DNA of 64,000 nt from an uncultured Planctomycetota bacterium (GCA_963737655.1 CAVTTN010000002.1:3616001-3680000), one strand, 5' to 3'; counted from the first letter of the stretch, positions 8,065 to 11,296 are shown. Notes: a model not told the origin generated them from the sequence alone. Numbers and translations are program-made.

Positions 8065-9408
8065 ATGAGCGAGCTTTCCGCCACCCCTCCGATGCGGAAC
8101 CGGAGGGGCTGGACCGCCTGGGGAATCGGTTTCGCGGTGGTCGTCCTGGCCGCAGCCGTCTTTGGTTTCCGGCTCGACGACGAGCCCCATTTCATGGACG
8201 AATCGGCGTATCTCTCCCAATCGTACTTCTTTGACATGTTCGCCTCGGGCCTCTCGAACGATCCCAGGTGGCTCGAGTACCCCGCCTACGACCTGCCGCC
8301 CCTGCCCAAGTATCTCGTGGGCGGGTCGCTACGGCTGCACGACATGCCTCGCCCGGGTCGGGCATCCATGATCGCCTGGTACCGGAACCCGAAAACCCGG
8401 GTCGGTTCGGCCGATCTGCTCCGGGCGGGCCGATGGCCCAGCGTCGTCCTGGGGGCGATTGGTTGCGGGGCGATTTTTGCGTTGGGGACGATGAGCGGCG
8501 GGACGAGGGTCGGCCTTCTCGCGGCCGTCCTCCTGATCGCGAATCCCCTCTACCGACTTCACGCCCGCCGGGCGATGTCGGACGTCCCGGCCGAGTGCCT
8601 GATCCTGGCCTCCCTGGCGGTCGGCATGGCCCTCTGGCGAGGCCTTTTGTCGGGCAAGGGCCGGATCTGGCCGATCCTGGCGGTCGCGAGCGGAGCGCTG
8701 GCAGGGTTAGCTGTTCTGGCGAAACTCAACGGCGGCCTCGGCCTCATGGTCCTCGCCTCATGGGCGGTCCTCGGGTTGGCGCGCCCCTTGCGAGAGAGAT
8801 GGACGGCCGCCCTCCTGTTTTCAGCCCTCGCGATCTCGGGCGTTGTGGCGCTCCTGACGTTCCTCTGCCTCAATCCGTTCGTGACGGCTCGTCCCTCAGC
8901 CCCCCTAGCGGGAGCGCCGGCGCCCGTCTCGGCCGTTCAGACGATCGGAACGAGGCTGGCGGAGGTCGTCACCCATCGATCTTCGCTCTCGCGTCACGCT
9001 CAGGAACAGTTCCCCGAGGATGCCCTGCCGACGGCCTTCGACAAGATCAAGGCGGTGGCCGTCCAGGGGTTCGGCCGGTTCGGGCCGCTGGGACCGGGAC
9101 ATTCGGACTCGACTCGGCGGTTCGAGCTTTCTCAGGATTGGGGCGCGATCGTCTGGCTGCCGCTTTTCCTCCTCGGGATGATCGCCGCGGCCCATCAGGG
9201 GCTGCGACAGGTCCGGGAAGGCCGGCCACCCACGGCCTGGGCAAGCCTCGATCAATCGCTCGTCGCCCTGATCACGGTCACGGCGTTCATTCCCCTGGCC
9301 TGGGACCGCTATTTCCTCTCGATCCAGGCGGGCTGCTGCCTGATGGGGGCGACCGCGTTGTCGGCGGGATGGGACGTGGTCGCGAAGGGGATGGGAGGCC
9401 GGCGATGA
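8065..9408 (+). CDS. ArnT/PMT-like (GT-C fold) membrane glycosyltransferase
   Basis: N-terminal TM then HFMDESAY, DLPPLPKYLVG, RRAMSDVP, GLAVLAKLNG, many TM helices, WDRYFL. Confidence 0.8.
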   Translation: MSELSATPPMRNRRGWTAWGIGFAVVVLAAAVFGFRLDDEPHFMDESAYLSQSYFFDMFASGLSNDPRWLEYPAYDLPPLPKYLVGGSLRLHDMPRPGRASMIAWYRNPKTRVGSADLLRAGRWPSVVLGAIGCGAIFALGTMSGGTRVGLLAAVLLIANPLYRLHARRAMSDVPAECLILASLAVGMALWRGLLSGKGRIWPILAVASGALAGLAVLAKLNGGLGLMVLASWAVLGLARPLRERWTAALLFSALAISGVVALLTFLCLNPFVTARPSAPLAGAPAPVSAVQTIGTRLAEVVTHRSSLSRHAQEQFPEDALPTAFDKIKAVAVQGFGRFGPLGPGHSDSTRRFELSQDWGAIVWLPLFLLGMIAAAHQGLRQVREGRPPTAWASLDQSLVALITVTAFIPLAWDRYFLSIQAGCCLMGATALSAGWDVVAKGMGGRR

Positions 9409-10934
9409 CGCGATTTCGCGGGCCGGCGGGCGTCTTCCTGATCCTCCTCGGGAGCAACGCCTTCTTCTGGCACTCCCGCGACTGGAACGTCTCCAGCCGC
9501 TTGATGCTGACGTATTCGATCGTCGATCGCGGCCAGGTCTCGATCAATGGCCTCGAAGACCACACCCGCGATCGCGCCCGGATCGGTCGAATTTACTATA
9601 GCGACAAGCCGCCAGGGTATTCCGTGTTGGCGGTCCCGGTCTACTGGCTCGCGAAAACGCTCCTGAGGCTTCCGGCCCACCCGCTCCACCGCCGCGGCCC
9701 GGAATTCACCCACTGGCCGAGCGATTACTGGATCACCCTGGGCACCTCCGGCTTGTTGACGAGCCTCACCGGCGCCCTGCTGGCCTCGATGGCCCGTCGT
9801 CTGGGGTGCGGGCCGAGGCGATCGGTGCTCGTGGGCCTCTCCTACGGCCTCTCGACCCCGGCCTGGGTTTACGGGACGCTCGCCTATGGTCATCCGGCAA
9901 CGGCCTTCGGACTGCTCTGGGCGTTCGATCTCGTGAATCAAGCAAGCGGAACGCGTCGGCCGGCGATCACATGCGGGCTGGCGGGGTTCTCGGCGTCGTG
10001 GGCCTCGATCGTGGAGCTTTCGGTCGGTCCCGTCGCCGCATTGATCGGCGGATACCTCCTCGTCCTGGTGATCGGTCGCCGGCTGCCGTCGCGGACGATC
10101 CTCACGTTTGGGGCTGCGGCGGCGCTCCCGGCGCTCGTCCTGGTCGGGTACAACCTGCTGGCGTTCGGATCTCCGTTGGACATGGGCTATTTTCACGAGG
10201 ACCTCGCCGATTTCCGAGGTGTCCATTCGCGGGCAAACCCCCTGGGCCTCCGGGGGATCGACTGGGGACGGGCCGCGGCCTTGCTGTGGGGCGAGCACCG
10301 AGGGTTGCTGTTCTACGCTCCCATCCTGGCGCTGGCCCCGTTCGGATGGATCGTCCTCTTCGCGAGAAGGTTCTGGGGCGTGGCGATCGTCTCGCTCCTG
10401 GCGGTCCTGGCGGTCCTGATGGTGAACCTGAGCTATCCCGAGTGGACCGGCGGCTTCTCGACCGGCCCTCGGCTGCTTCTCCCGGCGATCCCCTTCGCGA
10501 TGCTGGCGGTGGCCGGCTCGCTGGCGGTGGGAGGCCGATTCCTCACGGGCGTCGCGGCAATCCTGGCGGTCGTCGGCTGGGTGATCATCCTGATGTTCCA
10601 GGGATACGGGGGCCGGGTGGCTCCGGCGCCCGACGATCCGAGGATCGAGACCCCCTTTCGATACCCGCTCCGAGGGGTCGTCTGGCCAACCTGGCGCGGC
10701 GATCCCCTGCCGGCGGATCGAGAGGGCGGCCGATTCGATCGAACCCTCGCGAGTCCGGCGGTCTCGCGCTGGAAGTTGCGGGGCGCCTGGCAGGGCCTGG
10801 AGTTCGCCCCCCTGGTCGTTTTCCAGGCGATCGGCGTGATCGCGTTGCTGGTGATGCGTCCCGGACTGGACGCCGGGCCTCCGGACGCTTATCCTGAGAG
10901 AGGGCCAGTTTCGGGCCCGACCCTGACCGGGTAG
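9405..10934 (+). CDS. Polytopic membrane protein, probable GT-C-fold glycosyltransferase
   Basis: ATGA overlap with the upstream gene; YYSDKPPG, GLLFYAP, WTGGFSTGPRLLLP, many TM segments. The stop codon lies inside the tRNA 5' end. Confidence 0.75.
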   Translation: MTRFRGPAGVFLILLGSNAFFWHSRDWNVSSRLMLTYSIVDRGQVSINGLEDHTRDRARIGRIYYSDKPPGYSVLAVPVYWLAKTLLRLPAHPLHRRGPEFTHWPSDYWITLGTSGLLTSLTGALLASMARRLGCGPRRSVLVGLSYGLSTPAWVYGTLAYGHPATAFGLLWAFDLVNQASGTRRPAITCGLAGFSASWASIVELSVGPVAALIGGYLLVLVIGRRLPSRTILTFGAAAALPALVLVGYNLLAFGSPLDMGYFHEDLADFRGVHSRANPLGLRGIDWGRAAALLWGEHRGLLFYAPILALAPFGWIVLFARRFWGVAIVSLLAVLAVLMVNLSYPEWTGGFSTGPRLLLPAIPFAMLAVAGSLAVGGRFLTGVAAILAVVGWVIILMFQGYGGRVAPAPDDPRIETPFRYPLRGVVWPTWRGDPLPADREGGRFDRTLASPAVSRWKLRGAWQGLEFAPLVVFQAIGVIALLVMRPGLDAGPPDAYPERGPVSGPTLTG

Positions 10935-11296
10935 CTCAGTCGGTAGAGCAACGGACTTCAATCGAGAGATCGAATCGGAGCCCCGGGCGGGAAGAACGCG
11001 AACCGCCCGGTGAGCATGCCGCAGTTTGCTGGGACACCCTGAGAGCCCCCGACACCACAACGTCGCCGGCAACGGCAAGCGTGAAGGTCTGAAAAGGCGG
11101 GGGATTGGGCAATCAGCAGGCAAGGGGACGGCGGATCGCCGCCCTCGGCCTCAGAGACTCGACGCGGCACGCCTGCGATGGCGATGGGAGAGTCCAGACT
11201 GCAACGCCCGGAATCGTTCGACGAATCCGGGAGGTCGGCGAGAGCCGATGCGGTAGGTTAATCCGTTGGTCCTGGGTTCGAGTCCCAGCCCGGTCA
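10925..11296 (+). tRNA. tRNA-Lys(UUU), intron-containing; exons 10925-10958 and 11258-11296
   Basis: The spliced sequence GACCGGG TA GCTC AGTCGGTA GAGC A ACGGA CTT|TTAA TCCGT TGGTC CTGGG TTCGAGT CCCAG CCCGGTC A folds into a full cloverleaf; discriminator A73; no encoded CCA. Confidence 0.9.
10959..11257 (+). ncRNA. Group I self-splicing intron (299 nt, no ORF, with a P5abc-like extension)
   Basis: P1 with a U34-G wobble (GGACUU|C pairs with GGAGCCC); P2 CCGGGCGG/CCGCCCGG; P3 UGCCGC 11017-22/GCGGCA 11164-69; P4 UGCUG 11027-31/CAGCA 11114-18; P7 GACUC 11156-60/GAGUC 11190-94; P8; P9-domain hairpins; terminal G at 11257. Confidence 0.92.

Follow-up and report, generated by a model that had tools for sequence, protein, structure and literature searches.

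A group I intron without an ORF at site 34/35 of the tRNA-Lys(UUU) gene of Isosphaeraceae (Planctomycetota)

Introduction

The cyanobacterial tRNA-Leu(UAA) intron is a group I element that lacks an open reading frame and has long been inherited vertically. In the Anabaena pre-tRNA, the anticodon stem formed by the exons was reportedly found by Zaug et al. in 1993 to align the 3' splice site. More recently, Nakagawa et al. are said to have surveyed complete bacterial genomes (2025) and to have described group I introns that interrupt Patescibacteria tRNA genes, those of Asn and Asp being located at 35/36. The number of intron-split bacterial tRNA types was raised from 4 to 21 with tFind, on the basis of 5,292 introns in a January 2017 set of 80,413 genomes (Williams 2020, 10.1101/2020.01.27.920355); the Rfam model RF00028 was used in phase I of that survey, and its main text names only the Leu, Arg, fMet and Ile2 types. 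The list of hosts given in the initial annotation of the locus described here (Leu, fMet, Ile(CAU), Arg(CCU) and Asn/Asp) is therefore out of date.

Some of these elements encode endonucleases, as in the case of the tRNA-fMet intron, whose product I-Ssp6803I is a PD-(D/E)XK homing endonuclease (PMC1995217). Nawrocki et al. (2018, PMC6125680) describe archaeal IB4 and IA3 introns that were found by subtype models and had no significant RF00028 match, and tRNAscan-SE 2.0 is, by its own account, not built to detect introns of this kind (PMC8450103). Here, a stretch of 64,000 nucleotides from an uncultured Planctomycetota bacterium (GCA_963737655.1, CAVTTN010000002.1:3616001-3680000; hereafter the window, whose own numbering is used unless a contig is named) was analyzed, together with the rest of its genome (7.6 Mb, 87.7% complete) and related loci.

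Results

Two exons of 34 and 39 nt, separated by an insert of 299 nt, form a split tRNA-Lys(UUU) gene at 10925-11296 (plus strand, as for all the window features below). The 5' exon (10925-10958) comprises positions 1-34 and ends in U34, while the 3' exon (11258-11296) comprises positions 35-73, with A73 as discriminator and without an encoded CCA, which was absent from all 86 loci compared. Joined, the exons correspond to the intronless alleles of the same family, and the product carries the features of tRNA-Lys(UUU): the UUU anticodon, A73 and a body common to intronless Lys genes. The coordinates, the exons, the U.G pair of P1, P3, P4, P6, J6/7, P7, P8, P9.0 (ACUGCA/UGCGGU), the terminal G11257 and A73, all proposed in the initial annotation, were present in the sequence, and the presence of a group I intron at 34/35 of tRNA-Lys(UUU) was confirmed.

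The stop codon of an upstream ORF (8268-10934, plus strand) lies within the first 10 nt of the tRNA-Lys gene; the 3' half of this ORF resembles LA_3751 glycosyltransferases (E 1.6e-10), and its first half overlaps a membrane glycosyltransferase-like ORF (8065-9408). Neither a promoter nor a terminator was found by scanning, and no conserved upstream motif was detected at 84 loci.

The insert (10959-11257) was assigned to the group I introns, as had been proposed, on the basis of its core pairing, covariation, omega-G, a profile match and the RF00028 matches of orthologs. In P1, C32-U33-U34 and the first intron base C (10956-10959) pair with the guide GGAGCC (10977-10982), and the 5' splice site is indicated by the wobble pair U10958.G10978; in a local fold, this pair and U10957-A10979 had a probability of 0.98. 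A variable extension hairpin with a GAGA loop (10962-10973) is followed by the P2 stem-loop (10983-10990 with 11003-11010), with two-sided changes at four pairs. P3 (11017-11022 with 11164-11169) showed a two-sided change at one pair, while P4 (11027-11032 with 11113-11118) and P5 (11037-11039 with 11107-11109) were both invariant. A branched P5 extension (11046-11103) ends in a GCAA hairpin (11065-11076), and its P5a helix had two-sided changes at all six pairs. P6 (11119-11121 with 11148-11150), with P6a/b, and J6/7 (UCA, 11151-11153) lead into the P7 pseudoknot (11154-11160 with 11190-11195), which has a bulged A11155 and a putative guanosine-binding pair, G11156-C11194, and encloses P8 (11170-11183), where a G-C/A-U change occurred in 4 of 23 orthologs. 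The P9 domain (11198-11257) consists of a covarying P9.0 (11198-11203 with 11249-11254), a variable stem (11205-11233), a GNRA hairpin (11235-11248) and the omega-G at 11257.

In the alignment of 23 orthologs, P3, P4, P5, P6, P7 and P8 were each 100% paired, and two-sided changes were found in P2, P5a, P6a/b, P8 and P9.0. Over the whole structure, 93.5% of cells were paired, against 28-42% in slid controls, and two-sided changes occurred at 23 pairs, a count reached by none of 500 shuffles; both figures are lowered by two pairs of the P5 extension that were mis-set and still counted. P1, P4, P5 and most of P7 were invariant and contribute no covariation; the U.G wobble at the 5' splice site, for instance, was kept in 23 of 23 orthologs and thus has no covariation support, and the guide read (G/A)GAGC(C/U) in all 84 family loci. 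The last pair of P7 was C-G in 12, A-U in 10 and U-A in one of the 23 aligned sequences, and C-G in 19, A-U in 65 and U-A in one of 85 loci, covarying in 85 of 85. Within the family, the GACUC/GAGUC form of P7 seen in the window, which had been described as a compensated variant of the usual sequence, is indeed in the minority, with 19 of 85 loci against 65 for GACUA/UAGUC, yet it is not unusual, being also the usual form in tRNA-Leu(UAA) introns.

A P7.1/P7.2 insertion between P7 and P3', which defines subgroup IA, was absent, J7/3 consisting of three bases in the 23 aligned orthologs; the intron does not belong to that subgroup by this criterion. The core, UGCUGG...AAUCAGCAGG, looks like the IB-type P/Q consensus rather than that of IC3. 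No intron-encoded endonuclease was found among 84 distinct introns (223-355 nt), in which the longest ATG frame was of 97 aa. P10 was short, with at least three of its four pairs in 51 of 84 loci. All the catalytic elements and the GNRA loops are kept, and the intron fits each group I feature examined except the RF00028 cut-off in the window copy.

With regard to gene finders, the expectation that standard scans would miss the gene was borne out. ARAGORN in default mode found no tRNA in the window and made no Lys call at the 84 family loci; with option -i, it reported a tRNA-Asn(gtt) with a 299-nt intron in the window, and 45 Asn and 17 Lys calls at the family loci. The Asn call arises since both possible registers leave a 7-nt loop. 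The lack of a covariance-model match had been named beforehand as evidence against a group I intron: an Rfam scan of the region gave no RF00028 match (only chance miRNA and plastid matches), and a genome-wide RF00028 search left the Lys intron unmatched and found a different intron, that of Ile2. However, 4 of 10 family orthologs were matched, at 54.1, 44, 37.3 and 35.2 bits (cut-off 50, one above), the remaining 6, including all five cultured strains scanned, being unmatched. Lys introns of the same lineage outside the family scored 70.1 (L505) and 67.9 bits (L237), and a profile derived from five Lys introns of non-planctomycetes had the window intron as its sole match in the 7.6-Mb genome (E 3e-14). 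The RF00028 miss on the window copy is not a refutation, since archaeal introns are missed likewise (Nawrocki et al. 2018, PMC6125680).

In order to be read as tRNA-Asn(GUU), the gene would have to be spliced at 33/34 (CU|GUUAA) instead of 34/35 (CUU|UUAA). Both registers give a 7-nt loop and, in the window copy, both have a U before the 5' site and a G at the 3' end, the intron ending in GG; moreover, the ARAGORN -i calls at the window and in 45 of 84 family loci favor Asn. Comparison among loci separates the two registers. Of 90 loci in GTDB genomes that matched the core pattern, 85 with both exons were counted, leaving out L088, L091 and L125, which were truncated at contig ends or wrongly parsed, as well as the 23S rRNA introns L084 and L101. 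In the 34/35 register, the intron ended in G in 85 of 85; the preceding base, which would be the omega-G for Asn, was G at 34 loci, A at 24, C at 22 and T at 5, so that the G needed at the 3' end was missing in 51 of the 85. In addition, P1 sets U33 opposite A and U34 opposite G, the discriminator is A73, and the genome has a separate intronless Asn(GTT) gene. In all 23 orthologs, the product of 34/35 splicing was identified as Lys(ttt). Among eight intronless alleles of the family, six had no mismatches to the 34/35 product of the window, and the other two, with 4 and 5 mismatches, were one base nearer to it than to the 33/34 product; these alleles, and intronless orthologs in sister families, read CTTTTAA. 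An Asn product is thus practically negligible as an alternative, and the proposed splice site at 34/35, with anticodon UUU and Lys identity, stands.

In the window's genome, the split gene is the sole tRNA-Lys(UUU) gene found, as had been suspected, in an assembly of 87.7% completeness. No CTTTTAA anticodon arm was found genome-wide, and the only split tRNAs retrieved in orphan-half scans were the Lys gene and an Ile2 gene. An intronless Lys(CTT) gene is also present. Lysine codons numbered 49,520 in 2,722 crude ORFs, with 5,282 AAA vs. 44,238 AAG. Splicing should be essential, given that standard wobble does not allow Lys(CUU) to decode AAA. A second Lys(UUU) gene could nevertheless be unassembled, since the assembly is 87.7% complete and genes for fMet, Val(GAC) and Ser(CGA) were not found in it either (ARAGORN, RF00005 and custom patterns). 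GTC and TCG are frequent codons despite the unfound Val(GAC) and Ser(CGA) genes, which may be unassembled.

The Ile2(CAU) intron (contig C2:3573862-3574192), in a gene about 53 kb from the Lys gene, is inserted at 36/37, scores 48.9 bits with RF00028 and is of the classical type (L001). Other tRNA-like sequences were observed on the same contig: a gene with an expanded anticodon arm and an encoded CCA (C2:52385-52469, minus strand; RF00005, 39.5 bits), a tRNA close to tRNA-Trp that has an unusual loop and is called as Ile(TAT) (C2:6624238-6624309, plus strand), and 3' fragments of Lys(CTT), Arg, Val, Gly and Ser tRNAs (C2:1543087, 616949, 2637682, 6524281, 7114446 and 4658944), which are typical scars of genomic-island integration.

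The intron-bearing family is the Isosphaeraceae (Singulisphaera, Paludisphaera, Aquisphaera, Tautonia and Tundrisphaera), in agreement with the planctomycete host that had been proposed. The whole split gene was present in 22 of 24 same-family genomes of a first sample, and the intron in 99 of 121 family genomes, or 44 of 47 at completeness of at least 90%. Of the 22 genomes without it, 14 had neither form and eight had an empty allele: seven of the eight genomes of genus g340, and G815 of genus g347, whose remaining eight genomes are all intron-bearing. The flanks of the intronless alleles match those of intron-bearing loci, and the exons are nearly invariant across 23 genomes. More than one copy of the intron-bearing gene was observed in some MAGs (L052 and L067; G750 and G781, with two copies, by duplication or strain mixture). 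Family-type Lys genes with the intron also occurred in MAGs whose titles read Alphaproteobacteria, Terriglobia, Thermoplasmata and Kuenenia (L042, L059, L105, L091, L114, L119 and L125). They were not taken for transfers, as the tRNA body is that of the family and, on the Terriglobia contig, a flank matches the window as well; these loci are probably mis-binned or mislabelled.

Six of the eight empty alleles look like precise losses. In recA trees, g340 joins the intron-bearing G017 and G023 (100/99 in the protein tree) and G815 lies elsewhere inside the family, so that at least two precise losses appear likelier than late gains. Repeated recent horizontal gain could also generate a patchy distribution, and same-site introns in phages and Patescibacteria would offer a source; the intron-core tree is, in addition, weakly resolved, with G007 outside the family clade and three cores mis-trimmed (G015, G013 and G009). 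Nevertheless, that tree unites 22 of the 23 family introns (94/90), intron-core distances correlate with recA distances (rho 0.55, p 0.004, n = 17 genomes), the intronless genomes are nested, and the family introns, of up to 355 nt, hold no endonuclease-sized insert, which makes repeated gain quite improbable. The preferred history is a single gain at or before the Isosphaeraceae ancestor, followed by mostly vertical inheritance without an endonuclease and by two or more precise losses.

Occupation of the 34/35 site extends sporadically beyond this host lineage, to other Planctomycetia, Patescibacteria and phages. With one pattern, it was filled in at least 7 of 302 other Planctomycetia genomes, a count restricted to the other guide type, because the pattern was too strict for the family guide and found only 2 of 98 family genomes. 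It was also filled in at least 2 of 301 genomes of a Patescibacteria sample, among the loci viewed, and in large phage contigs (L237; L350/L430). A phylum-wide BLAST search with the intron gave 7 weak matches in 400 genomes; that in G735 was real, and five others, on inspection, proved to be chance matches to coding DNA. Metagenomes yielded at least 118 loci, 33 of them split calls: 11 of the family type, 8 other Lys 34/35, 8 fitting Lys 35/36, 1 Arg(UCU) 34/35 and 5 false. Introns that fit the 35/36 type of tRNA-Lys(UUU) differ in their core; they were recognized by eye in metagenomes (L456, L457, L471, L488, L494, L511, L537 and L541), with U at +1 and a G followed by TAA at the 3' end, and also occurred in phages (L429 and L431). 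Within the P6 region of the 602-nt intron of L429, a 149-aa PDDEXK_5 endonuclease is encoded (E 3e-30). Among INPHARED phages, only short core matches were obtained, and none was annotated as a tRNA intron.

Other observations concern relatives of the lineage. The phage tRNA-Lys(UUU) intron at 34/35 of L350/L430/L502, of 612 nt, carries a frameshifted HNH-like gene in P2, and the tRNA-Arg(UCU) gene of L445 has a 233-nt intron at 34/35 whose core is of the same lineage as those of the Lys 34/35 introns. Patescibacteria-type tRNA-Lys bodies (L058, L266, L505, L524 and L303) end in U73, both in the split UUU gene and in the intronless CUU gene of G041. In Patescibacteria/Peribacteria, 23S rRNA group I introns (L084, L101, L278 and L289) share P3/P4/P7/P8 motifs with the Lys lineage; the rRNA site is presumably 1951 by E. 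coli numbering.

RNA evidence was sought in public runs from relatives (24 runs, each with a share of at most 0.07), four of which were examined. Contigs covering the gene numbered 46 (X1), 92 (X2) and 76 (X8), mostly representing the intron core with scant flank. No contig joining 10958 to 11258 was found in the four runs; two joints belonged to intronless Lys(UUU) genes of other organisms, three X2 contigs crossed the border between the intron and exon 2, and in five X2 records the end was CCA followed by adapter, with no tie to intron-bearing genes. These contigs neither show nor exclude splicing.

Discussion

The evidence points to a group I intron, devoid of an ORF, that separates U34 from U35 in a single tRNA-Lys(UUU) gene and would be removed by splicing, a reading to which a probability of roughly 0.92 is given. 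The precursor would fold P1 with the U34.G wobble, and free guanosine bound in P7 would cut after U34; omega-G11257 would then replace it in P7, and ligation of the exons would yield a 73-nt tRNA to which CCA is added. These steps follow the standard group I pathway, as set out by Williams (2020, 10.1101/2020.01.27.920355) and Hausner et al. (2014, PMC3984707). Since P10 is short, base pairing between the exons within the anticodon stem probably helps to align the 3' splice site. Modification of U34 would have to follow splicing, as the splice site is at the wobble base itself. The need for splicing in order to read AAA would keep the ribozyme under selection.

A decayed relic that no longer splices, AAA being read by another tRNA, would be consistent with the lack of an RF00028 match for the window copy, the absence of a spliced junction among the RNA contigs and the incompleteness of the assembly. 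It is hardly reconciled with near-invariant exons and a covarying core across 23 genomes, and only one of the 99 intron-bearing genomes showed an intronless pattern (G775, in which it belongs to a different tRNA fragment); this explanation is considered very improbable. A variant of the favored reading keeps the same intron and product and makes excision dependent on a host protein or RNA chaperone. The high GC content, the long branched P5 extension and the short P10 would fit such a dependence, which very old vertical inheritance could have allowed; yet the catalytic elements and GNRA loops are all kept and there is no direct evidence of a cofactor, so that the variant appears rather unlikely. 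Removal of the intron from the single Lys(UUU) gene is the preferred reading, and the endonuclease-bearing phage Lys introns may offer a route of spread for elements of this kind.

As regards annotation, ARAGORN in default mode is blank, its -i option mostly calls Asn and RF00028 misses most copies, so that Isosphaeraceae genomes look as if they had no tRNA for AAA, or acquire a spurious second tRNA-Asn. The nested losses in g340 and G815 would allow a test of the cost or benefit of the intron to its host. The intron is a candidate second example, after that of cyanobacterial Leu(UAA), of long vertical retention in a tRNA gene that is essential and single-copy.

A literature search, which covered subscription journals thinly and mostly at title level, found no report of bacterial tRNA-Lys group I introns or of planctomycete tRNA introns. 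Given RF00028 scores of about 70 bits for some Lys 34/35 introns, it is fairly likely that the Lys(UUU) host and the 34/35 site are already tabulated in the surveys of Williams (2020) or Nakagawa et al. (2025). Near-fixation in Isosphaeraceae is less likely to have been described, since RF00028 misses the copies of cultured strains. It is possible, if doubtful, that Lys(UUU) is an unreported host and hotspot, with two adjacent sites, at least two core types and endonuclease-bearing phage copies, and with a 23S-like, non-IC3, ORF-less lineage near-fixed in Isosphaeraceae; AAA decoding in the whole family would then hang on a ribozyme unseen by Rfam, with the precise-loss lineages as natural controls. 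In any case the intron reveals no new mechanism, being a familiar kind of element that stands out mainly for escaping gene finders or passing as an Asn tRNA.

Among described systems, the introns of Nakagawa et al. resemble the Lys intron in that tRNA genes are hidden from annotation by an intron in the anticodon loop. The Peribacteria 23S introns (L084 and L101; cf. PMC11270868) match this core pattern as well and form a loose group with the Lys 34/35 lineage, their host being rRNA. The endonuclease of L429 belongs to the family of I-Ssp6803I (PMC1995217); unlike L429, the window intron has no ORF, and the L429 core differs and occupies the adjoining site (35/36). The Azoarcus-type tRNA-Ile2(CAU) intron (Ile2.5Ug), one of which is present in the window's own genome, is likewise a bacterial tRNA group I intron, but its site is 36/37, its core is another and it is distant in the tree. 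The types of Williams (2020) are of the same class and obey the same U-1/G-omega rule, under which the present gene would be Lys.3Ug, while RF00028, the phase I tool of that survey, left the Singulisphaera acidiphila copy unmatched here. Finally, the cyanobacterial tRNA-Leu(UAA) intron is also a group I intron of the anticodon loop inserted after U34 (34/35), with U at -1 and G at omega, and the absence of an ORF and long vertical inheritance are common to both; the Lys intron differs from it in its host, tRNA-Lys(UUU), in a core that looks IB-like rather than IC3, and in its branched P5 extension.
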